Shown piece after piece: positions 21,641-52,548 of a stretch of 52,548 nt of DNA. Made by a program: the position numbers and the translations under genes. A model generated the notes under the pieces. The model did no database searches and had not been told where the DNA came from. It saw only the letters and a program-made list of their open reading frames with translations. The DNA comes from a virus, in the IMG/VR virus record IMGVR_UViG_3300000557_000001, one strand, 5' to 3'. The first letter of the stretch is position 1, and each line of letters opens with the position of its first letter.

Positions 21641-21667
21641 AACAAAACTTTTAAAGGGGTGCTGAAA

Positions 21668-25355: not shown

Positions 25356-25463
25356 ATGAACGAAGCAGCTTTTGATTTTTTTGTTAACTTTTGGTTGTTT
25401 GGCTTTATGTTATGGGTGCAAGGTGTTTGCATATATATTTTAAAAGTAAGAAGGGGTGAATAA
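25356..25463 (+). CDS. 35-aa hydrophobic micro-protein candidate (not in ORF track)
   Basis: ATG 9 nt after AAAGGAG; MNEAAFDFFVNFWLFGFMLWVQGVCIYILKVRRGE. Confidence 0.35.
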   Translation: MNEAAFDFFVNFWLFGFMLWVQGVCIYILKVRRGE

Positions 25464-25464
25464 C

Positions 25465-25953
25465 ATGGGCAAAAAAATGATATATTTCGCTTATGGCAGC
25501 AACTTAAACTTAAGGCAGATGAAGCAGCGCTGCCCGGACGCACGGCCGATCGGAGTGGCAAAGCTGCCCGGACACAGGCTGGTTTTCCGCGGCGTTGCTG
25601 ACGTGATACCTAACAGGCAGGGCGGATCGGTTATGGGTGTTATATGGGAAATAACGCCGCGCTGCTTAAAGGAGCTTGATCGTTATGAAGGTTATCCGCA
25701 TTTATACGGCCGGCGATACTGCACGGTGATCGGCGAAGATGACGGCATATTGCGCGAAGCGATCGTTTACTATATGAAGAAGGGCGATCTTGCGCCGCCG
25801 AGCCGCGGATACTGGAAGGTGATCATGGAAGGATATAATGACTTTTGCATGGTGCCACGGCGCGATCTGCTGGAACCGAATTATGGTTACGGGAACGCGC
25901 GGCTGGACTATGATTGCGAAAAGTATTATCAGAGCGTTTTGCATTGGTATTAA
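25465..25953 (+). CDS. Gamma-glutamylcyclotransferase-like (AIG2/GGCT fold) protein
   Basis: ATG 25465, 7 nt after GAAGGGGTG; FAYGSNLNLRQMKQRCP, LDRYEGYPHLY. Confidence 0.75.
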   Translation: MGKKMIYFAYGSNLNLRQMKQRCPDARPIGVAKLPGHRLVFRGVADVIPNRQGGSVMGVIWEITPRCLKELDRYEGYPHLYGRRYCTVIGEDDGILREAIVYYMKKGDLAPPSRGYWKVIMEGYNDFCMVPRRDLLEPNYGYGNARLDYDCEKYYQSVLHWY

Positions 25954-33311: not shown

Positions 33312-33318
33312 CGGCGCA

Positions 33319-33598
33319 AGTGGTAATAATGGGCTTAAGTGGTAACGCGAGTGGTAATGGAAAAATGCCTTAATGGCGGGCTTTATAGATCACTATTACC
33401 ACTATTACCACTATTACCACCCATTATTGGTTTAAAGCAAAACAAAACTTTATAAAATATTATGATCATAGTTTTGTAAAAAATACACGGTGTATATTGG
33501 CGAAAATAGTGGTAATGTGGTAACGTGGCCGATTTTGCCCGTGGTTAAGGGCTTTTTCCGTTACCACTCGGCCGAAATAACTGGTAACGCATTACCAC
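33319..33598. repeat. Iteron-type origin of replication candidate: at least 11 GTGGTAA(T/C) motifs in both orientations around an AT-rich core
   Basis: AGTGGTAA(T/C) at 33319, 33338, 33350, 33508, 33517; inverted ATTACCAC x3 in tandem 9-nt register at 33395-33420, plus 33560 and 33591; AT-rich 33421-33490. Confidence 0.65.
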
Positions 33599-33693
33599 AA
33601 AAAGCGATTTTCACCCTTGATTTTTGCCACGGTGTAACAATACTGTTAATAGATGGCAGCGCTGGTAGAATGTAATGGGTGGCTTGAAGGGAG

Positions 33694-34005
33694 GTGTTTG
33701 GGCTGGCAGAGTGGAATGAGCCGAACGAAAAAAATATAACCGACAACGTTATGAAACTGCTTAAAAAGCAGCCGGGCGGATTTGCAGTTAAGCTGCACGG
33801 TGGCCGGTATCAAAAATCGGGCCTGCCGGACGTGCTTTTTATACAGGATGGAACGGTTTACTTTTTTGAAGTTAAGCGGCCGGGCAATAAACTGACAAAA
33901 CTTCAAGCCGATACCATGAAAAGACTTTGCAAAGCCGGCGCGTTCTGTTACACTGTTTTCAGCGCAGCGGACGTTAAAGCAGCGCTTAAGGAGGGCGATC
34001 AATAA
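33694..34005 (+). CDS. VRR-NUC domain nuclease
   Basis: GLPDVLFIQDGTVYFFEVKRPGNKLTKLQ (D..ExK core); start uncertain (GTG 33694 abuts the SD). Confidence 0.75.
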   Translation: MFGLAEWNEPNEKNITDNVMKLLKKQPGGFAVKLHGGRYQKSGLPDVLFIQDGTVYFFEVKRPGNKLTKLQADTMKRLCKAGAFCYTVFSAADVKAALKEGDQ

Positions 34006-34175
34006 TGGATCCGTTAACAGAAAAGCAACGAGAAACGCTATACAAGTTGATTGATATTGTTGAAGAAAAGGGCGGCATTGCGCCGCTGGATAAAACGGAA
34101 GTTGACGATTTAAGTGTGGGCGAAGCCGGCAGTTTTATTGCAGAAATACTGCGCGATCTTGGCTGGGAAGAATAG
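34005..34175 (+). CDS. 56-aa hypothetical acidic protein (not in ORF track)
   Basis: ATG overlaps the upstream stop (TAATG); MDPLTEKQRETLYKLIDIVEEKGG... Confidence 0.45.
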   Translation: MDPLTEKQRETLYKLIDIVEEKGGIAPLDKTEVDDLSVGEAGSFIAEILRDLGWEE

Positions 34176-34189
34176 CCGATGGAAGGCAG

Positions 34190-34405
34190 GTGTTGGCCGT
34201 GGGTGATCTGTTTATTTTAATTTATAACCGCGCAAGCGGCGCCTGCAATGTTTACGTGAATGGCATGGAGATCGCTGTTAAGGGCGACCTTAAGGCGTGG
34301 CGCGTTTTGCAGCTTATGCAATTATATGAGCATAACAGCGAAGCGCTGCCGGTGCCGGAAAAACCTTATGAAACACGGGAGGAAAACACTGATGCAAACG
34401 AATGA
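34190..34405 (+). CDS. Hypothetical protein
   Basis: 71 aa, GTG start after GGAAGGCAGG. Confidence 0.45.
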   Translation: MLAVGDLFILIYNRASGACNVYVNGMEIAVKGDLKAWRVLQLMQLYEHNSEALPVPEKPYETREENTDANE

Positions 34406-34997
34406 TATTATTGTTTGCCTTATGGGCAAAAGTGGCAGCGGCAAGACCGCGCTTGCGGACGTTTTGCGCAGGTATCACGGTTTTAACGTTATAAAATCCT
34501 TTACCACGCGCACGCCGCGGCCGGGTGAAAGCGGCGATGAATATTACTTTGTAGATCAGCCGCCGGCGCAGCCGGACGCTGACCCGGAAATAATAACTTA
34601 TGCCGAACATAACGGCGCGCATTACTGGACGGAGCGCAGCCAATATAAAGGCAAGGGCTGCAGCGCGTTTGTGGTTGAACCGATCGGCGCGCAGTTGTTA
34701 AAGCAAGAGGTTAACGACGCGCTGGTTGTTATTATTTATTTAGAGGTTGAAGAAGAAGAACGTTACCGGCGCATGAGGAAGCAGGGCCGGCGCATGGGTG
34801 ATTATAGAATATACGCGGACGGGAAAAAGTTTAATTATTCGCTGCTCCCGTGCGATTATATTATTAACGGCACGTTTCAAGACCCGGACGATCTGGCGTT
34901 TAGCATAGCTTCTGAAATGGAAAATATACAGCAAAACAAGGAAGGGGTGATTAGCAGATGGAAAAAAGCCGTGCAGAGCGTTTGTCGAAAATTTTAA
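34392..34997 (+). CDS. Guanylate kinase-like P-loop nucleotide kinase
   Basis: ATG 34392, 8 nt after GGGAGGA; GKSGSGKT and TTRTPRPGESGDEYYFV (GMP-kinase signature). Confidence 0.75.
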   Translation: MQTNDIIVCLMGKSGSGKTALADVLRRYHGFNVIKSFTTRTPRPGESGDEYYFVDQPPAQPDADPEIITYAEHNGAHYWTERSQYKGKGCSAFVVEPIGAQLLKQEVNDALVVIIYLEVEEEERYRRMRKQGRRMGDYRIYADGKKFNYSLLPCDYIINGTFQDPDDLAFSIASEMENIQQNKEGVISRWKKAVQSVCRKF

Positions 34998-35242
34998 GGC
35001 AGCAGGCCGCGGCCGTTAAATCCCGGAACAAGAACCTTTTAGACCGGCCACGGGAGGAAACGGATCCGGGCCAGTATTTAGTGAAGGCGCAGGTGCAGGC
35101 TTACTGCGACGCGCTGGAACACGCTGCACAGCAGGCGGAGGAAGCTGTTTGGCTTGATCGCATGGAACCGAGTTTGGATCAGCAGCAGCAGGCCGAGCTT
35201 GAGAGGAAAGTGTTTTGGCCGGATTATTTTTATTTTAGTTAA
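34958..35242 (+). CDS. Hypothetical protein
   Basis: 94 aa; overlaps the upstream gene by 40 nt. Confidence 0.5.
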   Translation: MEKSRAERLSKILRQQAAAVKSRNKNLLDRPREETDPGQYLVKAQVQAYCDALEHAAQQAEEAVWLDRMEPSLDQQQQAELERKVFWPDYFYFS

Positions 35243-35255
35243 GGAGGGCTTTTTT

Positions 35256-35363
35256 ATGACAATGACGGCAGCAGTTGTGATGGGTGCTTGTTGTTTTATT
35301 GCTGGGAACGTTGTGGCTTGGTTAATGTTTAGGGAACAATATTTTAAGAAAGGAGGGAAATAA
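35256..35363 (+). CDS. 35-aa single-TM micro-protein candidate
   Basis: ATG 35256 after AAGGAGGG; MTMTAAVVMGACCFIAGNVVAWLMF.. Confidence 0.4.
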   Translation: MTMTAAVVMGACCFIAGNVVAWLMFREQYFKKGGK

Positions 35364-35364
35364 T

Positions 35365-36105
35365 ATGATGGGCTTAATTAGATTGATCTTTTGGATCACG
35401 GTGATCGTGCTGGTTATGGGCTGGGCTGCTAATAACGCGCCGGCAAACAGCGGCGACGGTGAAACTTATATTAGCGAACCGGTTAGCGCTGGGGAAGCTG
35501 TTTACTGCAGCGACGCGCTTGATCTTGGGTGCGAAATATGGTTGGATACGGACGCGGCCAGACATTACACTTTACAAGGCACGCAGCCGCTTTGTTTTAA
35601 CTGTTTTTCGCAGTTGTATCCTTGCGTTGAGTGCGGTGAACGGCGCAACGATCGGGAGCCGGGGCTTACCTGCCCGATCTGCAAGGCAGAAGAACCAGCA
35701 GAACCGGAAGATCCGGAGTGCTGCGAACCGGAAGTAATTACTGAAACCGAAACGGAAGTTGTTACCGTTACTGAAACCGAATACGTGGAAAAAGAAGTGG
35801 AAGTGCCATGTTCGGATCAGGCCGACCGGATCGATGAACTGGAAGATGAATTGGCCGAAAAAGGCGATCTGCTGCAGGAATACCGCGAAGCAGAGCAGTT
35901 TGAAGATCTGGAAGAATACCTTAAAGAAAACGTGCCGGGCTTTATGGAAGAAGAAGAACCGGAGTTTGCTTACAGGCTGCCTTTGTGGCAGGTGTTAACA
36001 ATTTACTTTTTAGGCGTGGCCGTTGTGGCCGCTATTGGCTTTTACCTTTACAGCAGGGCTAAAAGCAAGCCGCGCGGCAAAGACGACGATTATGGCAAGC
36101 TGTAA
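35365..36105 (+). CDS. Bitopic membrane protein: TM helices at both ends, Cys-rich zinc-ribbon region and long acidic coiled coil
   Basis: 246 aa; LIFWITVIVLVMGW; CFNC..CVEC..CPIC; E/T-rich repeats; C-terminal IYFLGVAVVAAIGFYLY. Confidence 0.6.
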   Translation: MMGLIRLIFWITVIVLVMGWAANNAPANSGDGETYISEPVSAGEAVYCSDALDLGCEIWLDTDAARHYTLQGTQPLCFNCFSQLYPCVECGERRNDREPGLTCPICKAEEPAEPEDPECCEPEVITETETEVVTVTETEYVEKEVEVPCSDQADRIDELEDELAEKGDLLQEYREAEQFEDLEEYLKENVPGFMEEEEPEFAYRLPLWQVLTIYFLGVAVVAAIGFYLYSRAKSKPRGKDDDYGKL

Positions 36106-36119
36106 ACTATAATAAGCGG

Positions 36120-36152
36120 CCGGGCAGGTTTGGAGTTTACTCCCCTGCCCGG
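36120..36152 (+). terminator. Imperfect GC hairpin (terminator candidate) overlapping a TGgTATAAT extended -10
   Basis: CCGGGCAGG...CCTGCCCGG with inner GGAG/CTCC; TTTACT - 17 nt - TATAAT (36136-36164). Confidence 0.4.
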
Positions 36153-36193
36153 TTATGGTATAATATGGAAACAAGGAGGGCAGAATAGATATT

Positions 36194-36349
36194 ATGATAA
36201 CAGTTGTTCAGGTGTTTTTTATTATTATAATGGCGATTAGTGCGCTTGGTTTTTTTGGCGAAGAAGAAGCTGCAAAAAAACCTCACTTGTTAGCAGGTGC
36301 GGTTATTGCAGCTTTAATCATTGTTAGTTTGGAGGTGCTTGTTAAATAA
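36194..36349 (+). CDS. 51-aa two-TM micro-protein candidate (not in ORF track)
   Basis: MITVVQVFFIIIMAISALGFFGEEEAAKKPHLLAGAVIAALIIVSLEVLVK; stop overlaps the next ATG (TAATG). Confidence 0.4.
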   Translation: MITVVQVFFIIIMAISALGFFGEEEAAKKPHLLAGAVIAALIIVSLEVLVK

Positions 36350-36561
36350 TGACTAAAAAGCGCAAGCGCACGGGGCCGGAAATAGTGCCGGAAACTTTTG
36401 AACCGGCGCGTGATGGCGAAGAAGTGGAAGAACTGGCGAAGGATCTGCTGGGCAAGGCGATCAAGGGCGAACTGGAAGCAAAGGATCGGGAAGTTTGGCT
36501 GGATAACGGCCATAAAATACTCCATTGGCTACGCGCGCAGTTTGCAGGGCTGGCGGAGTAA
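36349..36561 (+). CDS. Hypothetical protein
   Basis: 70 aa, basic N-terminus, acidic middle. Confidence 0.5.
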   Translation: MTKKRKRTGPEIVPETFEPARDGEEVEELAKDLLGKAIKGELEAKDREVWLDNGHKILHWLRAQFAGLAE

Positions 36562-36592
36562 AAAACAACTATTAAAAGGAGGATTTTGTATT

Positions 36593-37177
36593 ATGGACGC
36601 AAGTTTAAAGTTAAAGGAAGTTTTTAAAAAGGTTTACAAGGACATTGACGGGTTGCAGGACATGATTTTAGCACGGGCCAGTGAAGAAGGCTGGTTGGAT
36701 GAACTGGTTGAATTGCACGATGATCAAGAGGAAGCGGTTACGGACGATTTCGATCTGGGCAGCGTTGCTGGCGTTGCTGGCATGGGCTTGCACGATGCCG
36801 CGAGTGCGCTGGGCGAATTGCGTATGCGCTGCGCAGCAGAAGCCGAAGATGAAGCTGAAGCTATAGAAGAACAGATCCGGGCCGATGGCAGCGAAGCGCT
36901 GGACGCAAAAGTGCGCTGGTTGGTTAACGTTTTAAAGCGCCTGCGCGGCATTGAAGAACTGGACATAGATATATGGGTGCATAATTTATCGAACACTATA
37001 GGCGCAGACACAGCAGCGCTGCAGATTGTTAAAAGCTTACTGGTTAAGCAAGAAGATGACTGCAAGGTGGGCGTTTACGAAGATGATAAGAGCCTTAAGG
37101 TTAATTACAGGCTTGAAAGTGGCGATACTGCAGAAGTTGTGATCATTAAAGGCGAGCGGCCGAACTGGGCAAGGTAA
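36593..37177 (+). CDS. Hypothetical acidic protein
   Basis: 194 aa from ATG 36593 behind AAAGGAGGA (track start 36398 lies inside the previous gene). Confidence 0.6.
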   Translation: MDASLKLKEVFKKVYKDIDGLQDMILARASEEGWLDELVELHDDQEEAVTDDFDLGSVAGVAGMGLHDAASALGELRMRCAAEAEDEAEAIEEQIRADGSEALDAKVRWLVNVLKRLRGIEELDIDIWVHNLSNTIGADTAALQIVKSLLVKQEDDCKVGVYEDDKSLKVNYRLESGDTAEVVIIKGERPNWAR

Positions 37178-37194
37178 AAGGAGGGCGCGCGGTT

Positions 37195-37728
37195 ATGGAC
37201 TTACCGGACAAAACGTATGAAATAATATACGCAGATCCGCCGTGGCAATATAAAGATCGCGCGCTGGCAGGCGAACGCGGCGCCGGGTGCAAGTATAAAA
37301 TTATGGATATTAAGGATATACAGGCGCTTCCGGTGCCGCGGATCGCGGCAGAAAACAGCGTGCTTTTTCTTTGGGCCACGTTTCCGCTTATTGATGAAGC
37401 CTTGACCACGCTGGCAGGCTGGGGCTTTATGTATAAGACCGCGGCGTTTGTTTGGGTTAAGCTTAACAAGCGGCAGCCGACGCCGTTTTGGGGAATGGGC
37501 AACTGGACACGGGCGAACGCAGAGGTTTGCCTGCTGGGCATTAAAGGCAATCCAAAAAGAGTTAATGCCGGTGTGCATCAGGTTATTATGACGCCGCGCG
37601 AAGAACACAGTAAAAAACCGGACGAAGCAAGGCGGCGGATCGTGCAGCTTTTAGGCGATCGGCCGCGGATCGAATTGTTTGCACGGCAAACGGCCGCCGG
37701 CTGGGATAGCTGGGGCGACGAATTATAA
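37195..37728 (+). CDS. MT-A70-family N6-adenine DNA methyltransferase
   Basis: 177 aa; IIYADPPWQY, FLWATFP, EEHSKKP, ELFARQTAAGWDSWGDE. Confidence 0.9.
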   Translation: MDLPDKTYEIIYADPPWQYKDRALAGERGAGCKYKIMDIKDIQALPVPRIAAENSVLFLWATFPLIDEALTTLAGWGFMYKTAAFVWVKLNKRQPTPFWGMGNWTRANAEVCLLGIKGNPKRVNAGVHQVIMTPREEHSKKPDEARRRIVQLLGDRPRIELFARQTAAGWDSWGDEL

Positions 37729-37795
37729 CAATAGCGCTGCAGGGCGATTTTTAGCGTTTATCGCCTTGCAGGGCGATTTTTTGGGAGGTGTTTTT

Positions 37796-38149
37796 ATGGA
37801 AGGCAGGTTAGGGATCAAGATTAGCTCGCAGGAAGAATTATTAAGTTATGCTGCGCTTAACAGGGATCAGATCCGGCAGGTTAGGGCGATCGCGTTGGAA
37901 GAAGGGCTTGAAGAATGGCGGCTGGCGCAGTTAAGCGATAGTGAAGTTATTGGCTGGTTAATGGAACGATACTGGTTTATGGTTGCTTATGACGACCCGG
38001 AAGCGCAGACCATTTACTTAATTGATCCGGGCCATATACTTGAAAATTCACCCACGATCGATAAGGATTACTATGCAAGCGATGATATATGGGAACCGGA
38101 TCAGCGCGCACGGGTTAGAGTGGCAGGTGATCAGTTTGACCGGAAATAA
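37796..38149 (+). CDS. Hypothetical protein
   Basis: 117 aa from ATG 37796 behind GGGAGGTG; preceded by direct repeat TGCAGGGCGATTTTT x2. Confidence 0.55.
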   Translation: MEGRLGIKISSQEELLSYAALNRDQIRQVRAIALEEGLEEWRLAQLSDSEVIGWLMERYWFMVAYDDPEAQTIYLIDPGHILENSPTIDKDYYASDDIWEPDQRARVRVAGDQFDRK

Positions 38150-38660
38150 ATACTGCAAGCAGTGCGATCAATGGCTGCCGGCCAATACGGATTATTTCTA
38201 CCGGAACCGAAAAATGGAGGATAACCTTTATTATATCTGCAAAAAATGCTTGTCAGCACAGCAAAAATCGCGCCGGGGCAGCAGCGATCGGCGCTTTGGT
38301 ATAAAGATAACAGAAGAAGATCGGGCCCGGCGGATCTGGTTGGTTGAACACGGTTACAACGATCAGCAAGCGGCCGAACAGGTGGGGATAACGTGGCACG
38401 CTTTCGCTAATTGGCGTCGAAAAAACGGTTACTTAAGGCCGGGTCGCAAAAAGCGCAAAGTTGAACATAATACGCCGAAGGAGCTTGAACTTACCACGAC
38501 GCAAAAGGTGATCGCGGTTGCTTTTTTAAAGGATCTTGACTGGTTAAAGAAAAAAGCTGCAGCGGCCGGCGCACAGATCAGCGAAGATCAGATCCGGGCT
38601 ATTATTGACGCATGGCGCGAAGGCCGGGGCGCGCAGCTTGATAAAATACTTGTTCAATAG
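38073..38660 (+). CDS. Zinc-ribbon plus HTH DNA-binding protein
   Basis: CKQC...CKKC, then HTH-like GYNDQQAAEQVGITWHAFANWRRKNG; start uncertain (ATG 38073 overlaps the upstream gene by 77 nt). Confidence 0.5.
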   Translation: MQAMIYGNRISAHGLEWQVISLTGNKYCKQCDQWLPANTDYFYRNRKMEDNLYYICKKCLSAQQKSRRGSSDRRFGIKITEEDRARRIWLVEHGYNDQQAAEQVGITWHAFANWRRKNGYLRPGRKKRKVEHNTPKELELTTTQKVIAVAFLKDLDWLKKKAAAAGAQISEDQIRAIIDAWREGRGAQLDKILVQ

Positions 38661-38662
38661 GC

Positions 38663-38691
38663 TTGACATTGGGTGGCAGGGGTGGTAAAAT
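38663..38691 (+). promoter_or_regulatory. Sigma70-type promoter
   Basis: TTGACA - 17 nt - TAAAAT. Confidence 0.6.
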
Positions 38692-38713
38692 TGGATCAAG
38701 GTGGTTAAAAACA

Positions 38714-38842
38714 ATGTTATCCCTTGCAACTGCAATGTCTATACACTACCCTTCTCCTTTTACGGCAGCAGCAGCGCGTTTCACCCCTTGCGCGCTGCTG
38801 GTTTTTTTTGTCCTTAAAACAATTATTAACGGAGGTGGATAA
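38714..38842 (+). CDS. 42-codon leader ORF candidate reading through the terminator hairpin
   Basis: ATG 38714 after AAGGTGG; MLSLATAMSIHYPSPFTAAAARFTPCALLVFFVLKTIINGGG; stops 2 nt before TTG 38845. Confidence 0.25.
   Translation: MLSLATAMSIHYPSPFTAAAARFTPCALLVFFVLKTIINGGG
38769..38809 (+). terminator. Rho-independent terminator / attenuator upstream of the modification-enzyme fusion gene
   Basis: 10-bp stem CAGCAGCGCG/CGCGCTGCTG, 12-nt loop, then G + T8. Confidence 0.85.
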
Positions 38843-38844
38843 AA

Positions 38845-41289
38845 TTGGAATTAAAACGGATGAAGCTTGAAGAAATAACGCCTGCGGAGTATAATCCGCG
38901 CGTGGATTTGCAGCCGGGCGACCCTGAATATGAACGGCTGCGCAAAAGTTTGCAGGAGTTTGGGCTGGTTGATCCGCTGGTATTTAACAAGCGCACGGGG
39001 CGCCTTGTAGGCGGACATCAGCGCGTTAAGGTGCTGCAGGATCTTGGTTACACAGAAGCGGACGTCAGTTTGGTTGACCTGCCGGCGGAAAAGGAGCAGG
39101 CCTTGAACCTTGCGCTTAACAAGATCGAAGGGCGCTGGGATGAAGATGCGCTGCGCGATGTTTTGGATAATATTAATAAGTGGATCGATGAAGAAATGCC
39201 GGACTTTGATATTGAAGCAACTGGTTTTTCGGAGCAGGAAATAGACGATCTTATAGGCGATACGGAAGGGCTTATGGACGGCGCTGATTACATGGACGGC
39301 GACGGGCAAAGTTTGGCAGAGCGCTTTGTCGTGCCGCCATTTACGGTATTAGACGCGCGGCAGGGTTACTGGCGGCAGCGAAAAGAGGAATGGTATGCAA
39401 AGGGCATTATAACGGAGGCCGGCAGGGAGGATCTTGACGATACCACGGCTTCCGGTTGGGTGAGCCGCGGCAGGGATCAGGGCGGCAGCGCGTTTGATCC
39501 GGTGCTGGCAGAAATAGCGTTTAAATGGTTCTGCCCGGAAGGCGGCGCAGTGCTTGATCCGTTTGCCGGCGAAAGCACGAAGGGCATCGTGGCCGGGCTG
39601 CTGGGCTTTAGTTATACAGGCGTTGAAGTTAGGAAGGATCAGGTGGACGCCAATTACAGGCAGCTTGAAGCAATGCCGGAAAAACCGGGCGGCGAAGTGC
39701 GTTGGATCACTGGCGACGCTGCAAAGCTGGAAAGCGTTTTGCCGCAAGGGCAGGAGTATGATTTTATTTTTACCAGTCCGCCTTATTATGACTTGGAGGT
39801 TTACAGCAGTGAAGAAGCCGACGGCAGCACGTTTGGCAGTTATGCTGAATTTATGGCGTGGTATGAGCATATCTTTAAGCAGGCCGTTGCGCAGTTAAAG
39901 GAAAACGCCTTTGTTGTGGTAAAAGTGGGCGAAATACGCGATAAAAAGACCGGCGCTTACCGGAACTTCGTGGGTGATAACATAAGCTGCTTTAAAGGGC
40001 TGGGCTTGCATTACTACAACGAAGCGATCTTGGTTACTCCGGTCGGCAGCTTACCGCTGCGCGCCGGGCGGCAGTTTGAAGCAAGCCGCAAGCTGGGCAA
40101 GGCGCATCAGAATATCCTTGTATTTTACAAGGGCGACCTTAATAAAATTAAGGATCTGCAGTTTGTGGAAGTTGAACTGGACGAAGATGGCAGCGTTACG
40201 CTGGAAAGCGAAGCGGAAACTGCTGCAGGCGATGGCGCGCAGGTGCAGGCTGCAGACGGCGGCGGCGGCAACGTAAAGATGAAGCTGGGCAAAGTGGCCG
40301 ACAATGCGCTGCCGCGCGAAGCTATGGAGTTATATAACGCAACGGGATCGGTGCCTTTTGCAAAAAAGTTTAACGCCTGCCCGGAACTGGGCGAATATTT
40401 AAAGCTGGTTTACGGTGCAGGCGATCAAGAGCTTACACTGCAAGAAGTTGATTGCCCGAAGCCGATACCGTTACAGGATAACGGAACCTGCTGGGTGAGT
40501 TTTACCGGTGGGAAGGACAGCGTGGCTGCAGCGATCAGGGCGCAGGAGCGCGGTTACAAGGTGATCCCTTATTACTTGCAGGGCATTAACCGGGGCGTCG
40601 CCGATGAACTGCACTATGCGCAGAAGATCTGCGACCGCATGGGTTGGCCGCTGGTTGTAGATAAGATCAGTATTAGCGGCAAAAAAAGCGGCGTTGTAGA
40701 AATGCCGACCAAAAATCAAGTCATTGTTTTGTGTATGCTGGGGCGCATGGCAGAACAGGGCGGCGCAGCTTGGACGGCCGGTTATCACGAAGATACGGCG
40801 CAGGCGGAACGCGGCTGGGGCTTTGACTTTAGCGACGGCGACAAAGCGGTTGCGCTGTTTAACGCTTACCTTGAAAAGCGCGTGCCGGGTGTTAAGTTCT
40901 TAATGCTGCTGCAAGATACGCTTGAATGCTGGGCTTTGTGCGCGGACTATGGACTAATCAACTATATTAAAGGCTGCGCTTGTCAGCCACGGTTTAAGGA
41001 AATGCGCCGGAAGAAGAATGTTGAAAAGTTCGGCGCTGCTAATATACTGCACGGCCGCTGCGGAAGCTGTATAAAGTGCGCGTGGGAACAGGTTGCACTT
41101 CAACGGCTGGGCATAGTGCCGGAAAGCCGCGCGGTTAGACAGCACGGCTTGAAGTTCTTGGAGCAGTTTAAAAGTGTTTGGAATACCGGCGGCCGGGATA
41201 TGGAAAATTATTTAGTGCCGCAAAGCAGGGCCGAACAGGAAAAACAGGCAAGGCGTGGCCGGTGGCCGAAGCAGCCGATGCCTGATTAA
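38845..41289 (+). CDS. Triple fusion: ParB-like N-terminal domain, SPPY-type DNA methyltransferase, PP-loop ATP pyrophosphatase (PAPS-reductase/QueC-like)
   Basis: 814 aa, TTG 6 nt after GGAGGTGG; EYNPR..GGHQR; DPFAGESTKG and FTSPPYYD; SFTGGKDS; C-terminal CGSCIKC. Confidence 0.85.
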   Translation: MELKRMKLEEITPAEYNPRVDLQPGDPEYERLRKSLQEFGLVDPLVFNKRTGRLVGGHQRVKVLQDLGYTEADVSLVDLPAEKEQALNLALNKIEGRWDEDALRDVLDNINKWIDEEMPDFDIEATGFSEQEIDDLIGDTEGLMDGADYMDGDGQSLAERFVVPPFTVLDARQGYWRQRKEEWYAKGIITEAGREDLDDTTASGWVSRGRDQGGSAFDPVLAEIAFKWFCPEGGAVLDPFAGESTKGIVAGLLGFSYTGVEVRKDQVDANYRQLEAMPEKPGGEVRWITGDAAKLESVLPQGQEYDFIFTSPPYYDLEVYSSEEADGSTFGSYAEFMAWYEHIFKQAVAQLKENAFVVVKVGEIRDKKTGAYRNFVGDNISCFKGLGLHYYNEAILVTPVGSLPLRAGRQFEASRKLGKAHQNILVFYKGDLNKIKDLQFVEVELDEDGSVTLESEAETAAGDGAQVQAADGGGGNVKMKLGKVADNALPREAMELYNATGSVPFAKKFNACPELGEYLKLVYGAGDQELTLQEVDCPKPIPLQDNGTCWVSFTGGKDSVAAAIRAQERGYKVIPYYLQGINRGVADELHYAQKICDRMGWPLVVDKISISGKKSGVVEMPTKNQVIVLCMLGRMAEQGGAAWTAGYHEDTAQAERGWGFDFSDGDKAVALFNAYLEKRVPGVKFLMLLQDTLECWALCADYGLINYIKGCACQPRFKEMRRKKNVEKFGAANILHGRCGSCIKCAWEQVALQRLGIVPESRAVRQHGLKFLEQFKSVWNTGGRDMENYLVPQSRAEQEKQARRGRWPKQPMPD

Positions 41290-41309
41290 TTAAAAAGGTG
41301 GGTGCTTTT

Positions 41310-41897
41310 ATGGCGTTGATCGATTTAAGGTTAGGCGATCGCAAGTGGATCCGGGCTAAAGAGATCGCGCGGTGGATGGAAGAAGCCGGTTACGATCAGG
41401 CGATCTGCTTTAGTTGTGGCAATGCAAGCAAAGAGTTAAAAAATGCCGGCATTAAGACCCTTGAGATTGCGCCGGGGCGCGACCTGCAGGCGCAGCGGTG
41501 GTTCAAGCAAAGCGAGATCCGCCGCTTTTGGCCGCACTGCTTTGACGCGACCAGTGGGAACCTGCCGGCGGAGCTTATGGAACGGATCGGCTGGCGGCTG
41601 GCAACGCTGGCAAAGTTTGAACTTAAGGAACGTGGCTTTATTGACCGGGATCGCGATGTTTTGATCCGGGAGGATACTTACCGGATCACTTGCGGCAGCG
41701 GCGAAACACTGGTTGCGCTGGCAATGGCAAAGCCGGGCTTTAAGTTTGAAGCGGTTTACGACAATGAGAACCCGGCGACGCGGTTTGAAAAAGAAGCGCC
41801 GTTGACGCCGCTGGTTTTTAACATAGCGGAGCGCGTTTGGCTGGGTGATAAACTTTTAAAGGCTTGCGACGCTTCCTTTTACTGGGTGGAAGGTTAA
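41310..41897 (+). CDS. Hypothetical protein with Rossmann-like glycine loops
   Basis: 195 aa from ATG 41310 after AAAGGTGGG; ICFSCGNAS and ITCGSGETLVAL; family not recognised. Confidence 0.6.
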   Translation: MALIDLRLGDRKWIRAKEIARWMEEAGYDQAICFSCGNASKELKNAGIKTLEIAPGRDLQAQRWFKQSEIRRFWPHCFDATSGNLPAELMERIGWRLATLAKFELKERGFIDRDRDVLIREDTYRITCGSGETLVALAMAKPGFKFEAVYDNENPATRFEKEAPLTPLVFNIAERVWLGDKLLKACDASFYWVEG

Positions 41898-42626
41898 ATG
41901 GGAACCTGCTGGCAGTATATACAACGGCAAAAGTTCGCTGCCGAAGGGCTGCCGGCAGGGCTGCAGCCGGATCAGTTAAAGCCACGCCTTGCGCACGTTG
42001 CACGGATCAGCAAGGATCAGGCGCGCGCGGTTATCCTGAAATATGAATGGCTGGGAACAATGGCGCAAACGGGCCTTCATTATGGCATATTTTACGGCGA
42101 TCACTTGGCAGGCGTTACTTGCGTCAACGTGGGCGGCGCCGGGGCGGCCGGTGTTAACAGTCATAAGGAGTTTAACCTGCAGCGCGATCAGGTGGCTTAT
42201 TTAGCGCGCGGCGCTTGCGTTCACTGGGCGCCGACCGGAACTAACAGCCGCCTTGTTAGCATAACGGCGCGCATGGTTGCAAAGGACAGCGCTGCAAAGG
42301 TGCTGCTTGCATACGCTGACCCGGCTGCCGGGGAGATCGGAACAATATATCAGGCTTGCAACTGGTATTATATAGGCAGAACGTGGCCGGGCCGGCGCTG
42401 GGTGTCGCCTGATGGGCAAAAGGATCGCGATTGGAAATATCCTTATGATCTTAAAAAACAGCGCGGAAAAACTCGTAAACACTGGGCGGACTGGTTAAAG
42501 GCGCAGGGCTGGACTGTTAAGGTGCTGCAGCCGAAATATAAATACGTGGCAATCTTGGACAAGGGCGACCCGGATCTGTTAAAATTGATTAAGGGAAAAG
42601 CGCAGGATTATCCTAAAAAAGTTTGA
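41898..42626 (+). CDS. GNAT-fold, Mom/DUF4338-like candidate DNA base-modification enzyme
   Basis: 242 aa; KYEWLGTMAQTGLHYGIF.., LLAYADPAAGEIGTIYQACNWYYIGRT; family assignment from memory of the motif only. Confidence 0.4.
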   Translation: MGTCWQYIQRQKFAAEGLPAGLQPDQLKPRLAHVARISKDQARAVILKYEWLGTMAQTGLHYGIFYGDHLAGVTCVNVGGAGAAGVNSHKEFNLQRDQVAYLARGACVHWAPTGTNSRLVSITARMVAKDSAAKVLLAYADPAAGEIGTIYQACNWYYIGRTWPGRRWVSPDGQKDRDWKYPYDLKKQRGKTRKHWADWLKAQGWTVKVLQPKYKYVAILDKGDPDLLKLIKGKAQDYPKKV

Positions 42627-42694
42627 GCGTCCGAAGTGGGCTTAAGCTGCAGCCAGCAGCGAAGCGGCGGTTCAACTCCGACCCGGACGCTCCA
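42627..42694 (+). ncRNA. tRNA-like structured element (acceptor-like stem, T-arm-like GGTTCAACTCC, 3' CCA), non-canonical; may double as a terminator
   Basis: GCGTCCG...CGGACGC-T-CCA (extendable to a 9-bp stem GAGCGTCCG/CGGACGCTC), then CATATTTTT; only 65 nt before the CCA and no anticodon arm found by eye. Confidence 0.35.
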
Positions 42695-42714
42695 TATTTT
42701 TGGAGGTGATATTT

Positions 42715-42867
42715 TTGGAAAATTATACGCAGCAAACGCAGCAAGCGCAGCAGCAAGAACAGCAAGCGCAGCAGCAAGGCGGCTGCCCGGATTGCGGAAG
42801 TTTTAATTACATACCGCAAGGCGGCTGCCCGGTTTGCATGGATTGCGGATACTCGAAGTGCGGTTAA
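42715..42867 (+). CDS. 50-aa Gln-rich / Cys-rich zinc-ribbon peptide (not in ORF track)
   Basis: TTG 6 nt after GGAGGTG; MENYTQQTQQAQQQEQQAQQQGGCPDCGSFNYIPQGGCPVCMDCGYSKCG. Confidence 0.5.
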   Translation: MENYTQQTQQAQQQEQQAQQQGGCPDCGSFNYIPQGGCPVCMDCGYSKCG

Positions 42868-42910
42868 GGTGGCCGCGACAACGGATGAAACGGCTGGGAG
42901 GTGGAGATTT

Positions 42911-43819
42911 TTGCTTAACGAGAACAGGTTATATGCGGAAAAGCAGGGTATCGACAAGTATCACGACGCAGGCTTTAAAGGTGCAGGCGTGCGGATCGGA
43001 ATGCTGGATACCGGCTTTGTGATCCCTGACGGATGGCTGGGTGGAAAAATAAAATATGGCGGCGAACCGGAAACGTTTAACGGGCAGCAGTGGGAACACG
43101 GTGCAATGACCGCGCACGTTTTGCATCAGGTTGCGCCGGAAGCTACAATTTACACTTTTAACGCGAACCGGTTAATGCCTTATGACGTGATCGAACTTTG
43201 CATAAAGCAGAACATTGATATATTAACTGCAAGTCTTGGTTATCCAGATCCGGGCAGTTGGTTCATGCGCGAATTGGCAAAGTGGAGTGAAAAGCTCCTT
43301 AACAAAGGCGGCCTGCTTTGTGCTGCAGCCGGGAACAGCGATTATGACGGTGTTAGCGTGCCGGCGAAAAAGGATACGTGGCTGGCAGTGGGCGCAGCCG
43401 TTCTTGACAGCGGTGCTATAGTTAGGAAGTATTATAGCGCGGTTGGCAGTGCGCTTGAAGTCATGGGCTTTACGAACTGGCGTATAAACATTAAGCCGGT
43501 GGGTGATACGATCGTGGATATTTATACCGGAACAAGCGCTGCTTGTCCGAACGTGGCCGGGCTGCTTGCGTTATATATAACGGCACGCGGCAAGCCGCGC
43601 AGCAAGGAGCAGATCCGGGCCATGATCGAAGCAAACACGCTCCCAGTCGTGCAGGCGCACAGCCGCGATAAATATACCGGCTTTGGGCTGCTTGTTTTGC
43701 CGGCGTTGGACGAACTGGGCGATTATGATAATGGCGGCAACGGCAACGGTGCGCCGGGCTTTTGGGAGCAGTTGTTCCTTTTTATGCGCAAGCTTGTCAA
43801 AAAGCTATTTTCGCGATAA
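42911..43819 (+). CDS. Subtilisin-like serine protease (peptidase S8)
   Basis: TTG 42911 after GGGAGGTGGAG (track start GTG 42869 also possible); catalytic D (MLDTGF), H (HGAMTAHV), S (GTSAACPNVAG). Confidence 0.85.
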   Translation: MLNENRLYAEKQGIDKYHDAGFKGAGVRIGMLDTGFVIPDGWLGGKIKYGGEPETFNGQQWEHGAMTAHVLHQVAPEATIYTFNANRLMPYDVIELCIKQNIDILTASLGYPDPGSWFMRELAKWSEKLLNKGGLLCAAAGNSDYDGVSVPAKKDTWLAVGAAVLDSGAIVRKYYSAVGSALEVMGFTNWRINIKPVGDTIVDIYTGTSAACPNVAGLLALYITARGKPRSKEQIRAMIEANTLPVVQAHSRDKYTGFGLLVLPALDELGDYDNGGNGNGAPGFWEQLFLFMRKLVKKLFSR

Positions 43820-43842
43820 AATAAGGGCAGGAGGTTTTTAAC

Positions 43843-44403
43843 ATGGGCAAGCGGCATGACTGGGAACCGGTAAAAAGTGAATATATAGAAGGCTATACGG
43901 ACAGCGACGGGAACCATGTTTGGCCGACGTTGCAGCAGTTAAGCGAACGGCATGGTATAAGCGAAAGCACTATGCGCAAGCGCGCGTCGCAGGAGGACTG
44001 GGCCAATGAACGGAACATTTTCCGGCAAAGAGTGGAACACAAACGGCAAGAAAAGCGCGCTGAACATTTAGCCGGCAAGGCGAGCGAGTTTGACGCAACG
44101 ATCTTCCGGGCGTCGGAAACGGCGACAAAACATATACAGGCGCATCTTGCGCAGGCAAGCGAACGCTTTCGGCAAAGCGGCGGCCGGGATCCGATGCCGC
44201 TGGCACAGTTGGAACAACTTGCAAAAAGTTTGGAACGTTACCAGAAGATCGGGCGCCTTGCACTGGGCGAAGCGACCGATATAACGGAGGGCGACGAAGA
44301 TGGCACAGACCAGATCATTATCAAGGAACTCGTCGGCGACCCCGACGTTGCAGCAAAAGTTAAAGAACTATTCCGATCAAGAACTGCTGAAAGAACTCGC
44401 TAA
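43843..44403 (+). CDS. terS: Terminase small subunit candidate
   Basis: 186 aa; HTH-like TLQQLSERHGISESTMRKRAS; directly upstream of, and overlapping, the large terminase gene. Confidence 0.6.
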   Translation: MGKRHDWEPVKSEYIEGYTDSDGNHVWPTLQQLSERHGISESTMRKRASQEDWANERNIFRQRVEHKRQEKRAEHLAGKASEFDATIFRASETATKHIQAHLAQASERFRQSGGRDPMPLAQLEQLAKSLERYQKIGRLALGEATDITEGDEDGTDQIIIKELVGDPDVAAKVKELFRSRTAERTR

Positions 44404-45865
44404 ACAGGATTATTCGTTTTATTGCGAATACACGCATAAGGGCTTATATAAGCCGGCGCGGCATTTACAATTAATTGCAGATCGGCTGACGGAGGTTGCG
44501 TTGGGTGATCTGCAGAAAATAATGTTTTTATTGCCGCCGCGGCACGGCAAGAGCATGACCGTTACTGAAACGTTTCCTTCTTACTTTATAGGCAAGGATC
44601 CGGAGCGCCGCGTTATGGCGATCAGCTATGGCAGCTTCCTTGCACAGAAATTCGGCCGGGCCAATAGGCAAAAAGTGATTGACTTTGGCCCGGCTTTGTT
44701 TGATATACAGGTTAACAGGGATCATTCCAGTTCAACGAACTGGGGAATTAAAGGGCATCGGGGCGGCATGATCAGCGCAGGGCTGGGCAGTGGGATCACT
44801 GGCGAAGGTGCCGACCTGCTAATAATAGATGACCCGATTAAGAACCGCAAGGAAGCGGACAGCGTTACTTACCGCGAAAACTTATGGCACGAATGGCAGA
44901 ACACGCTTGTTCCGCGGTTGCAGCCGGGCGGCGCAGTTATACTTATATTGACCCGGTGGCATGAGGACGATCTGGCAGGGCGCCTGCTGGAACATGAGCC
45001 TGACGAATGGGAGGTTTTTAGTTTGCCGGCGCAGTGCGAAGAACCGGAAGCGGATCTGCTGGGCAGGCAGCAAGGCGAATATCTTTGGCCGGGCGTTGGC
45101 TTTGACCATGACTGGGGCGAAAAGCGGAAGAAGGAAGTTGGAACGCGCGCTTGGAACGCGCTTTACCAGCAGCGGCCGGCGCCGAACACGGGTGCAATAT
45201 TGAAGCGGCATTGGTGGAGGTTTTGGTGTTATAAAGGGCAGGCCGATGATTTAAAGCCGGTTACGCTGCCAATACCAGAAGCGGAAGGCGGCGGCTTTAT
45301 TGAACGGGCTGCAGAGGAATTGCCTGAAAGTTTTGATAGCATGGCGCAGAGTTGGGATATGGCATTTAAGGATCACAGCGACAGCAGTTATGTTGTCGGG
45401 CAGGTTTGGGCTGCAAAGGGATCGCAGTATTATGTCAAGGATCAGATCCGCCGGCAGCTTAACTTCCCGGCCACGGTTAAGGCGCTTGAGCAGTTATCGC
45501 TTAAGTGGCCGGAAACGCGTGCAAAGTGGATCGAAGATAAGGCAAACGGGCCGGCAGTTATACAGCAGCTTCAAGGCAAGGTTAGCGGCATGATTGCAGT
45601 TAGGCCGGACGGCAGCAAGGAAGCGCGCGGCCACGCAGTTTCACCCATTGTAGAAGCTGGCAACGTTTACCTTCCTCATCCATCCCTTGCGCCGTGGGTC
45701 TGGGATCTGATTGAAGAATGCGCCGTTGCGCCTTATGGCGCGACTGATGATATGTTTGACGCCTTAACGCAGGCGTTAACACGGTTAACACAGCAAAGCA
45801 GCACGCGGCACGCGCGCGCGGCAAGCAGTGCAGGCAGCGCAAAGCGTGGCCGGCGGCGCAAATAA
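44300..45865 (+). CDS. terL: Terminase large subunit
   Basis: 521 aa; Walker A LPPRHGKS, LLIIDDP (Walker B), C-terminal nuclease-type acidic residues; ATG 8 nt after GGAGGG. Confidence 0.85.
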   Translation: MAQTRSLSRNSSATPTLQQKLKNYSDQELLKELAKQDYSFYCEYTHKGLYKPARHLQLIADRLTEVALGDLQKIMFLLPPRHGKSMTVTETFPSYFIGKDPERRVMAISYGSFLAQKFGRANRQKVIDFGPALFDIQVNRDHSSSTNWGIKGHRGGMISAGLGSGITGEGADLLIIDDPIKNRKEADSVTYRENLWHEWQNTLVPRLQPGGAVILILTRWHEDDLAGRLLEHEPDEWEVFSLPAQCEEPEADLLGRQQGEYLWPGVGFDHDWGEKRKKEVGTRAWNALYQQRPAPNTGAILKRHWWRFWCYKGQADDLKPVTLPIPEAEGGGFIERAAEELPESFDSMAQSWDMAFKDHSDSSYVVGQVWAAKGSQYYVKDQIRRQLNFPATVKALEQLSLKWPETRAKWIEDKANGPAVIQQLQGKVSGMIAVRPDGSKEARGHAVSPIVEAGNVYLPHPSLAPWVWDLIEECAVAPYGATDDMFDALTQALTRLTQQSSTRHARAASSAGSAKRGRRRK

Positions 45866-51353: not shown

Positions 51354-51803
51354 ATGACAAAAAAACAGTTAAGCAGGGCGGCTTTACCGCTTAAGGACTA
51401 TGAACAAGAGGATTTTGCCGGGCTGCCGCTGGTTAAGGGCATATCTGGCGCGAAAAAAGTTGTTTGTTTTGACCCCGAAGCTGAATTTAATACCAGTTTG
51501 ATTAGAATAGGGCTGCAGCAGTTGGATCGTTGGGAAGTTTTGGTTCCCTTTAGGCGATACAACGAGCTTGCAGTTGATTTTTTTGGGGAAAAAGATCCGG
51601 CCATGAAGCAGGCGTTGGGTGATTTGCGGATACCAGTTTATGATCCGCGGCTGGTTATGCTGCGCGTTAACAATACGACGCGCGCGTTGTGGAAACGTTA
51701 TAATGAGTTAAGCGCAGAATATGACTGGCGGATCGCGTTTCAATTGGCGTTGTGGGAAACAAAGCCGCATTATTATCCGCTTCCGGCAGGTGTTTGGATA
51801 TGA
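51354..51803 (+). CDS. Hypothetical protein
   Basis: 149 aa; no SD adjacent to its ATG (nearest SD is 51305-51313, upstream of the hairpin). Confidence 0.55.
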   Translation: MTKKQLSRAALPLKDYEQEDFAGLPLVKGISGAKKVVCFDPEAEFNTSLIRIGLQQLDRWEVLVPFRRYNELAVDFFGEKDPAMKQALGDLRIPVYDPRLVMLRVNNTTRALWKRYNELSAEYDWRIAFQLALWETKPHYYPLPAGVWI

Positions 51804-52548
51804 GCATAAATCAAGTTATACACGGTGATTGCTTAGAAGTCATGCCATCACTGCCCGATAAAAGTATAGACATGATTTTATGCGATTTACCTTACGGCAC
51901 AACTGCTTGTAAATGGGATAGCATAATACCGTTTGAACCGTTATGGGCAGAATATAAACGGTTGATAAAAGATAATGGTGCGATAGTGTTGACGGCAGAC
52001 CAACCATTTACAAGTGTATTGATAACAAGTAATTTATCTGATTATAAATACCGTTGGGTTTGGGATAAAATGCGGGGCGTTGGACATTTAAACGCAAGGC
52101 ATAGACCAATGATGAGCGCAGAAGACATTTGCGTTTTTTGTGACGGTGTGACAAAATACAACCCACAAATGCGGGAAAGGGAAAACCCCCGTAAAAGTAA
52201 AAACTATGGAACACAAGAATGTTATGGTAAGACAAGAGATATCTTTGACGGTGAGGTTTTAATGGAAAAGCACCCTATCAATATTTTAAGGTTTAGTAAA
52301 TCAGAACAATCAGATATGTTATTACACCCTACACAAAAACCCGTTGCCCTGTTTGAATATCTAATTAAAACCTACACCAATGAAGGTGAAACGGTATTAG
52401 ATAATTGCGCAGGTTCAGGAACAACAGCAATAGCCTGCATAAACACTAACCGCAATTATATCCTAATCGAGAAGTATAAAAAATATGTAGATATGATCAA
52501 CGAGCGAATATCCGAGCACGAACAGCAGGCATCATTATTTGGAGGCGA
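51800..52548 (+). CDS. DNA methyltransferase, beta-class N6-adenine/N4-cytosine type; the ORF runs off the window end and finishes at nt 111 (252 aa in total)
   Basis: ATG 51800 (ATGA overlap); DLPYG (DPPY-type motif IV) early, HPTQKP, DNCAGSGTT (motif I) late; absent from the ORF track because there is no stop before the window end; much lower G+C than neighbours. Confidence 0.9.
   Translation, partial: MSINQVIHGDCLEVMPSLPDKSIDMILCDLPYGTTACKWDSIIPFEPLWAEYKRLIKDNGAIVLTADQPFTSVLITSNLSDYKYRWVWDKMRGVGHLNARHRPMMSAEDICVFCDGVTKYNPQMRERENPRKSKNYGTQECYGKTRDIFDGEVLMEKHPINILRFSKSEQSDMLLHPTQKPVALFEYLIKTYTNEGETVLDNCAGSGTTAIACINTNRNYILIEKYKKYVDMINERISEHEQQASLFGG
52448..52548. repeat. Second copy of the 101-nt terminal overlap
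   Basis: Identical string to nt 1-101. Confidence 0.95.

Follow-up and report, generated by a model that had tools for sequence, protein, structure and literature searches.

A phage DNA-modification island in which a ParB/methylase/PP-loop fusion is coupled to a small partner of predicted PALP-like fold

The 52,548-nucleotide viral sequence IMGVR_UViG_3300000557_000001, called the window below when the whole stretch is meant, contains a DNA-modification island of five genes, g1 to g5, within 5.4 kb (Table 1). We describe here this island and, in particular, the pairing of g3, an 814-aa fusion of a ParB-like domain, a methyltransferase-fold domain and a PP-loop ATPase module, with g4, a 195-aa protein referred to as X. 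The five genes had been proposed in a first-pass annotation made from the sequence alone. Their open reading frames (ORFs) are all verified, on the + strand; Pfam and PHROG matches confirm the MT-A70 methylase with its DPPW motif (g1), the zinc-ribbon/helix-turn-helix (HTH) protein (g2) and the fusion (g3), and the reading of the region as a DNA-modification island is supported.

The window carries identical copies of a 101-nt direct repeat at its two ends (1-101 and 52448-52548) and is thus the complete, circular genome of a phage, of ~52.4 kb. Its GC skew is positive throughout, and all the genes examined lie on the + strand. Within the island, g3 and g4 are separated by 20 nt and g4 and g5 by 0 nt, each of the three genes having its own ribosome-binding-site-like sequence. 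The promoter-like site preceding this block, a consensus match only, agrees with 11 of the 12 consensus positions and is the top match within 33000-45000. A relative, L001, has these genes in the same order, at protein identities of about 53-67%, which shows that the clustering of the island genes is not due to chance. No DNA-level match to the island was found among GenBank phages. X recurs unchanged, again beside g3 and the Mom-family gene (g5), at L182-L184 and L002, in assemblies of at least three further public samples; SRR490134, which is one of these, also contains the L001-type phage.

Table 1. Coordinates of the features discussed in the text, with the evidence on which each assignment is based
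Feature	Coordinates	Strand	Basis
g1, MT-A70 N6-adenine DNA methyltransferase	37195-37728	+	Pfam PF05063 4.9e-33; phrog_359 3e-84; DPPW
g2, zinc ribbon + HTH_23 DNA-binding protein	38022-38660	+	Pfam HTH_23 8.6e-7; PHROG zinc-ribbon/endonuclease VII-like matches
Promoter-like site preceding the g3-g4-g5 block	38663-38691	+	TTGACA, 17-nt spacer, TAAAAT, with TG
g3 fusion, 814 aa	38845-41289	+	ParB-like + N6_N4_Mtase (SPPY) + PP-loop
g3 ParB N-terminal-like domain, about aa 1-145	38845-39279	+	phrog_620 7e-40
g3 N6/N4 amino-methyltransferase-fold domain, clade A	39293-40212	+	PF01555 2.2e-14; phrog_498 4e-114
g3 motif I DPFAGESTKG (Glu243 codon 39571-39573)	39556-39585	+	direct translation
g3 motif IV SPPY	39775-39786	+	direct translation
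g3 QueC-like PP-loop ATPase module	40345-41289	+	stand-alone homologues; AlphaFold2 model; Foldseek; motifs
g3 PP-loop SFTGGKDS	40498-40521	+	direct translation
g3 four conserved Cys, C..CxxCxxC	40975-41079	+	direct translation
g4 (X), 195 aa, PALP-like (fold-type II PLP enzyme-like) predicted fold	41310-41897	+	AlphaFold2 model; Foldseek; hhalign
g5, Mom-family GNAT, divergent member	41898-42626	+	PF25680 6.9e-24; phrog_1384 2e-27; PDB 8bv8 1.4e-4
Third DNA methylase, beta-class N6/N4, DLPY	51752-52548	+	PF01555 1.6e-27

The methylase domain of g3 passes the Pfam threshold (54.4 bits against PF01555, for a cut-off of 26.7). Its N-terminal domain is recognised by PHROG ParB-like families (7e-40) and stays under the cut-off of Pfam ParB_N (PF02195; 16.6 bits against 26.3). 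In beta-class enzymes, motif I has the canonical form DPFxGSGTT. That of g3, DPFAGESTKG, departs from the canonical FxGxG that binds S-adenosylmethionine (SAM), residue 243 being a glutamate. No characterised member of this phage methylase subfamily was found; plasmids hardly ever carry the family, and its members in cultured phages mostly bear the label hypothetical or ParB-like.

The PP-loop ATPase that had been predicted at the C-terminal end of the fusion is borne out by the SFTGGKDS motif and by a QueC/Cap9-like structural model. The module also exists in other phages as a stand-alone protein of ~375 aa (P0017-P0026, 40-46% identity), and its PP-loop motif and C..CxxCxxC pattern are invariant, the cysteines being kept in 11/11 sequences. 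With the AlphaFold2 model (predicted local distance difference test score, pLDDT, of 80), the top Foldseek matches are QueC (2pg3/3bl5) and Cap9 (9nto_B), followed by TtuA, LarE and QatC. Matches to the QueC profiles are sub-threshold, with 13.6 bits for PF06508 (cut-off 22) and 13.1 for TIGR00364 (cut-off 150.3).

X contains the motifs SCGNAS and CGSGET and has no match in Pfam, PHROGs or NCBIfam, Pfam also finding nothing in 10 further members of its family. This family forms 239 clusters among 1.84 billion representative proteins, nearly all members being 150-200 aa long; extra domains were looked for in the longer homologues and none was found. Only 3 of 50,697 GenBank phage records contain X, two of them being those of Clostridium phage phiCTP1 (gp52, annotated as 'hypothetical'). 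Among 151 members, the conserved positions are Lys12, Arg15, Gly37-Asn38, Trp64, Asp79-Ala-Thr-x-Gly-His and Gly129-Ser-Gly-Glu-Thr133. Lys12 itself is present in 141 of the 151, the remainder being mostly gaps (6 gaps, 2 Ala).

The AlphaFold2 model of X has a pLDDT of 89. In the Foldseek search, which the first-pass annotation had put forward as a check on this gene, it matches TrpB, CBS, CysK/CysM and threonine deaminase, all of them fold-type II enzymes dependent on pyridoxal phosphate (PLP), with probabilities of 0.96-1.0 but template modelling (TM) scores of only 0.41-0.54. Against viral structures, no family member is found and PALP-like proteins are again the best matches. Sequence searches of the PDB, with g4 singly or as a profile, give spurious matches only. 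When the X family is compared by hhalign with 14 sequences of X2, the PALP proteins encoded next to some related methylases (see below), an alignment of 141 columns is obtained (62% probability, E 7e-5), in which the lysines are matched, CGNA falls on the Asn loop and GSGET on the GSG loop. This matching register supports the view that X may be a minimised relative of the PALP partner. Against only five PALP domains inserted in methylases, the hhalign signal is weak (4%), and hmmsearch with the X profile finds nothing in the PALP-fused methylases.

The gene context of X was scored in 96 loci, which represent 36 non-redundant lineages. A homologue of the g3 methylase is directly upstream of X in about 34 of these lineages, mostly with overlapping stop and start codons, against 2 lineages (the window phage and one relative) in which Mom lies beside X. 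X is therefore to be grouped with the methylase rather than with Mom. A joint action of X and Mom was rejected on this count, and the role given to X in the first-pass annotation is corrected: X is the obligate, translationally coupled partner of one clade of ParB-methylases. The methylase-X pair is mostly found just upstream of terminase genes, and a QueC-like module is near X in about 1/4 of the lineages, where it is fused, located between both genes or placed after X. SAM synthetase (MetK-like) genes flank the pair in four lineages, upstream in L066, L068 and L071 and at 1716-2516 in L010; L068, the one tested of the three upstream loci, has all three MetK domains, and the L010 copy matches the N-terminal domain only.

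Other genes are seen at some of these loci. Radical-SAM genes adjoin the pair in two lineages (L007 and L083), and a TET-associated glycosyltransferase does so in L004. At L100 (6227-8552), from the metagenome-assembled genome of an uncultured bacterium, a Glu243 methylase has an X2-like PALP gene upstream and X downstream, both partner types thus occurring together.

The coupling was also examined from the side of the methylase family, which has at least 591 loci in IMG/VR, the best 80 being scored. All 19 loci with Glu243 have X and none of the 61 loci with Gly243 does; after pooling (172 loci), Glu243 and X match without exception in either direction. The family comprises three clades, each invariant at residue 243 among its non-redundant members (E in 39/39, G in 45/45, D in 47/47). 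The Glu243 clade (clade A, that of g3) has DPF-G/A-G-E-x-T-K-G as motif I and SPPY as motif IV, and the Gly243 clade has GGSVRG and CPPY (61 loci). Residue 243, in the SAM-binding glycine loop, predicts which gene overlaps the stop codon of the methylase. The same scan led to the rejection of the GE motif as a hallmark of the whole methylase family.

Gly243 enzymes mostly have no partner, but they are sometimes associated with a PALP recognisable by Pfam, either downstream of the methylase or inserted in it. Pseudanabaena phage Pam4 gp70 (L185, 4035-6524) has a Pfam-positive PALP domain between motifs I and IV, and Erythrobacter phage vB_EliS_R6L gp1 (L187, 4059-6479) has the same insertion, these two methylases being about 810-830 aa long. 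At eight other Gly243 loci, a PALP protein of 230-290 aa, X2, is encoded directly downstream (5e-12 to 2e-5 against Pfam PALP). Phage R6L also has a PAPS-reductase-like PP-loop gene (gp7) near its PALP-inserted methylase. In Microcystis phage Mae-JY30, the protein annotated as 'DNA modification methylase' (XAI96327; L188, 4244-4954) has the C-terminal motif of PALP partners, PPFPSDPHY, and is on this basis probably a PALP partner rather than a methylase.

The partner of the Asp243 clade is different again. In Croceibacter phage P2559S (gp66/gp67; L186, 4518-6159), the gene overlapping the methylase stop encodes a SAM decarboxylase (AdoMetDC; PF02675, 2e-19), which has been confirmed experimentally as such in a study that makes no mention of the methylase (PMC9992855). 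Among 80 relatives of this decarboxylase in IMG/VR (L193-L272), 73 have an Asp243 methylase of the family just upstream, whose stop codon is overlapped by the decarboxylase gene by 10-40 nt in most cases. The published polyamine reading of these phage speD genes may be incomplete.

Spermidine synthase offers a precedent for an acidic residue at such a position: an invariant Asp at the centre of its motif-I glycine loop keeps out the SAM carboxylate, the decarboxylated form being selected instead (PMC1282579). In the methylase family, the acidic loop residue occurs in exactly both clades that are locked to a partner, and one of these partners is a proven SAM decarboxylase. This argues, by analogy, that Glu243 and Asp243 enzymes would use a cofactor remodelled by their partner. 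Phages are otherwise known to pair a cofactor-making enzyme, a methylase-fold transferase and an ATP-dependent amide ligase: CmoA, CmoX and CmoY of Synechococcus phage S-B43 produce 5-carboxymethylcytosine and its glycine amide (PMC12783734).

Our best explanation of the island is that it would encode three independent anti-restriction DNA modifiers, namely g1, g5 and g3 together with g4. The MT-A70 enzyme g1 would produce N6-methyladenine. The Mom-family enzyme g5 would transfer an aminoacyl group from a charged tRNA to the N6 of adenine, giving carbamoylmethyl-adenine or a variant of it; the tRNA would be that of the host, as no tRNA gene is found in the phage genome. In the g3-g4 system, on which g1 and g5 would not depend, X would be a minimised PALP-type enzyme, probably PLP-dependent, that remodels the amino-acid end of SAM. 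By the simplest analogy, it could remove the carboxylate, as the SAM decarboxylase does in a sister clade. The methylase-fold domain of g3, with its Glu in the glycine-rich cofactor loop, would be specialised for the altered cofactor and would transfer a non-methyl, aminopropyl-like group to a flipped adenine or cytosine, at its exocyclic amine, with the ParB-like domain loading the enzyme on DNA. QueC-family enzymes make amides from adenylated carboxylates, and Cap9, a QueC relative of CBASS, joins a deazaguanine carboxylate to a protein amine. The fused QueC-like module could likewise perform an ATP-dependent, amide-forming step on the installed group, by acylating the amine or, if the carboxylate is retained, by amidating it.

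This explanation, taken as a whole, is tentative, and we favour it without considering it probable. Its most specific form is more doubtful: the Glu243 and Asp243 clades would be DNA aminoalkyl transferases, their partner altering the carboxylate end of SAM so that a cationic aminopropyl-type chain is placed on adenine N6 or cytosine N4 after replication, with the QueC-like module acylating the amine in the present case. Pyruvoyl AdoMetDC would play this part for the Asp243 enzymes, and X, as a minimised PLP enzyme, for the Glu243 enzymes. The complex, possibly undescribed modification suggested by the first-pass annotation has thereby gained a stronger basis, through the co-variation of partner type and cofactor loop, while the modification itself is still a matter of interpretation.

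Several points weigh against this explanation. The product could be a methyl group, and we know of no PALP-fold enzyme that decarboxylates. The X family gives no hhalign signal with E. coli CysK, whether taken singly or in a shallow alignment, the search for CysK homologues having yielded only sequences above 88% identity; the link between X and X2 has a probability of just 62%. Two invariant lysines (K246 and K360) and SPPY in place of CPPY set clade A apart from the AdoMetDC-linked clade, and the cofactor of clade A may therefore differ from decarboxylated SAM. The three clades are also phylogenetic groups (nearest-neighbour labels agree in 87/90 cases), so that differences in residues cannot be separated from common descent. 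Sampling of the Asp243 clade was from the decarboxylase side only, and Asp243 methylases devoid of decarboxylase could have been missed. Finally, most Gly243 enzymes lack any partner, and the QueC-like module is also present with Gly243 enzymes that lack X.

The main alternative is that g3 simply makes N4-methylcytosine or N6-methyladenine from SAM, and that X, PALP, AdoMetDC and SAM synthetase are auxiliary metabolic genes, involved for instance in polyamine supply during DNA packaging or in the housekeeping of SAM and S-adenosylhomocysteine, whose place beside the methylase, ahead of the packaging genes, would be fortuitous. A separate role would then fall to the QueC-like module. The Pfam score of the g3 domain and its intact SPPY motif are in favour of plain methylation, as are the absence of a partner in most Gly243 relatives, the position of the methylase-X pair, mostly just upstream of terminase genes, and the ability of the P2559S decarboxylase to restore spermidine synthesis in E. 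coli, which was read as the mark of a polyamine gene (PMC9992855). However, an independent helper leaves unexplained the perfect three-way match between partner type and cofactor-loop residue, the stop/start overlaps, the PALP domain located inside the methylase fold and the PP-loop fusion in g3. We regard plain methylation as a serious possibility, although not a likely one.

Ordinary methylation would also be the outcome if X served the clade-A methylase as a subunit without catalytic activity or with a regulatory function, acting on its specificity, activation, stability or SAM sensing. In favour of this, the pairing of X with the methylase is obligate and translationally coupled, X is much smaller than functional PALP enzymes, and it has no sequence signal to canonical PALP. 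Nevertheless, the residues that are invariant in the 151 members (Lys12, Gly37-Asn38 and Gly-Ser-Gly-Glu-Thr 129-133) fit a cofactor-binding active site, and the same gene slot is held in the sister clades by real enzymes, AdoMetDC and Pfam-positive PALP, which makes a purely regulatory X unlikely in our eyes.

Sulfur insertion of the Dnd/Ssp type, giving a phosphorothioate or a thio-base, is quite improbable. In such a scheme, X would mobilise sulfur as a CysK- or desulfhydrase-like enzyme, the PP-loop module, with an Fe-S cluster on its four Cys, would adenylate DNA, and the ParB-methylase part would target it. The association of ParB, PLP enzyme and PP-loop ATPase parallels that of DndB, DndA and DndC, and the Foldseek matches include the sulfur transferases TtuA and LarE for the module and CysK, CysM, CBS and an H2S-producing enzyme for X. 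The best structural matches of the module are nonetheless QueC and Cap9; its C..CxxCxxC pattern, which we take to be akin to the zinc site of QueC, is not that of DndC or TtuA; g3 has no PAPS-reductase/DndC signal; no homologue of DndD/E or SspB/C is found among the scanned ORFs of the genome; and ~3/4 of the X lineages have no PP-loop gene. As for a true QueC supplying preQ0 or ADG for the phage DNA, to which the weak QueC matches (Pfam 13.6 bits, TIGR00364 and phrog_1550) and the top Foldseek rank of QueC could point, it is hardly credible, since every sequence match is under its family threshold, no DpdA/TGT, FolE, QueD or QueE is found in any scanned ORF of the complete genome, and the module is fused to a methylase and recurs beside the g3 methylase family, not beside deazaguanine genes.

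The Mom relationship of g5, which the first-pass annotation had proposed, is borne out by Pfam, PHROG and PDB. The match to PF25680 reaches 85.1 bits (cut-off 27.1) and covers profile positions 3-202 of 202, and the PDB entry matched, 8bv8 (1.4e-4), is that of Mu Mom. Mu Mom transfers glycine from Gly-tRNA(Gly) to the N6 of adenine, the adduct then rearranging to carbamoylmethyl-adenine; its residues R111, S124, D149 and R151 are essential or nearly so, the R151A variant being inactive in vivo (PMC13219725). R104, S117, D141, Y151 and W179 of g5 align with R111, S124, D149, Y159 and W181 of Mu Mom and are also kept in L001. In contrast, R151 is replaced by Ala143, in an ungapped and well-anchored stretch, and H58/Y59 by E50/W51, the same being true of L001. 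The donor and the product of g5, a divergent member of a large known family, may therefore differ from those of Mu Mom. Between the Mom gene and the terminase genes lie a small, Gln-rich and Cys-rich ORF (42700-42867; CPDCG...CPVCMDCG) and a gene for an S8 subtilase-like protease (42869-43819).

At the other end of the island, g1 gives 114.9 bits against PF05063 (cut-off 23.9), its catalytic motif lying within YADPPWQY. A terminator-like hairpin is found 3' of g1, at 37760-37777, and g1 is probably its own transcription unit. The true start of g2 is probably near 38073, and L001 has a weak homologue of g2 in the equivalent position. With g1 and g3, the third methylase brings the methylase domains to the three that had been counted initially (PF05063 for g1, PF01555 for the two others). 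Its ORF is not part of the island and runs to the end of the window, where the circular genome has its junction. Past this junction are encoded a class-I SAM methyltransferase (108-629, Methyltransf_11) and a 583-aa protein with weak glycosyltransferase-1 matches (626-2377), which may form with the third methylase a second modification-related block. The GMP-kinase-like protein noted in the first-pass annotation corresponds to a P-loop kinase at 34260-34997 (Guanylate_kin, 29.8 bits), but no scanned ORF encodes the nucleoside deoxyribosyltransferase-like protein that it had also listed. In the early region, an Amidoligase_2 protein (21602-22513, 1e-46) and a gamma-glutamyl cyclotransferase-like GGACT protein (25456-25953, 3e-15) are present.

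The Mom-like and MT-A70 genes are new members of known families. For the remainder, neither the residue-243 rule nor the QueC-like fusion is described in the literature searched, nor is a coupling of this methylase family to AdoMetDC, to PALP or to PALP-like partners. This literature also has nothing relevant on phiCTP1 DNA, on ParB/PP-loop/methylase fusions or on DNA with aminopropyl or aminocarboxypropyl groups, and methylase fusions of the g3 type go unmentioned in a 2026 survey of QueC proteins. We class the island among the phage DNA hypermodification clusters, as one based on a methylase-fold transferase and a cofactor-related partner. We see a realistic, though less than even, chance that a new class of DNA modification is encoded there.

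Phage DNA hypermodifications determine which restriction and CRISPR systems a phage escapes, and DNA-labelling enzymes can be drawn from them. The residue-243 rule ties together the X family (~240 clusters), a widespread, phage-specific methylase-like family, phage SAM decarboxylases and a QueC-like module, and there are cultured phages of the X type (phiCTP1), the AdoMetDC type (P2559S) and the fused PALP type (Pam4 and R6L). A non-methyl adduct, if one is made, would add to the known modifications of DNA bases and to the known uses of decarboxylated SAM. If the chain is of the aminoalkyl type, it would represent a new class of DNA hypermodification, and many phage 'speD polyamine genes' would be DNA-modification genes. 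Should only methyl groups be transferred, the strict coupling to the partners would still need an explanation. In all cases, the window phage contributes a divergent Mom enzyme devoid of the arginine that is essential in Mu Mom.

The island can finally be compared with five known systems. Like Mu Mom, g5 spans the full Mom profile, including the region of the Mom-specific insertion. It differs by an identity of ~25% and by the replacement of the essential arginine and of H58/Y59, and it belongs, unlike its counterpart in Mu, to an operon-like block with other modifiers. With PALP proteins (PF00291), X may share the predicted fold, and the spacing of its motifs is PALP-like: a conserved Lys where a helix begins, then Gly-Asn and Gly-Ser-Gly-x-Thr loops. 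The closest comparison is with the short, ACC-deaminase-like PALP proteins that adjoin Gly243 methylases. X is however only 160-200 aa long, without Pfam match or profile similarity to CysK, and no PALP counterpart of its DATxGH motif was identified. With QueC, Cap9 and QatC, the g3 module shares an SGGxDS-type PP-loop and the C-terminal C..CxxCxxC, its model having QueC and Cap9 as best Foldseek matches (TM 0.63-0.73 relative to the target). It differs by its scores, under the Pfam and TIGRFAM thresholds of QueC, by an extra N-terminal segment of ~90 aa and by its fusion or adjacency to a DNA methylase homologue, and no deazaguanine genes accompany it in the window genome.

The two remaining comparisons are those on which the proposed mechanism is modelled. 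As with AdoMetDC and spermidine synthase, the Asp243 clade couples a decarboxylase to a transferase of class-I methyltransferase fold, and Asp101 of spermidine synthase may correspond, as judged from the motif, to Asp243 in the AdoMetDC-linked clade and to Glu243 in g3. The partner of the g3 clade is however PALP-like and not a pyruvoyl AdoMetDC, and the transferase is a DNA amino-methylase homologue with (S/C)PPY and a ParB-like domain, so that the acceptor would be a DNA base instead of putrescine. The logic proposed for g3-g4 would otherwise be that of CmoA-CmoX-CmoY, in which an altered SAM cofactor, a non-methyl transfer to DNA and an ATP-dependent, AMP-forming extension follow each other, ParB-domain proteins being often nearby. 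The enzymes differ at each step: CmoA is a carboxy-SAM (Cx-SAM) synthase of SAM-methyltransferase fold and X is PALP-like, CmoX is a C5-cytosine methylase homologue and g3 an N6/N4 amino-methylase homologue, and CmoY is asparagine-synthetase-like where the g3 module is QueC-like.

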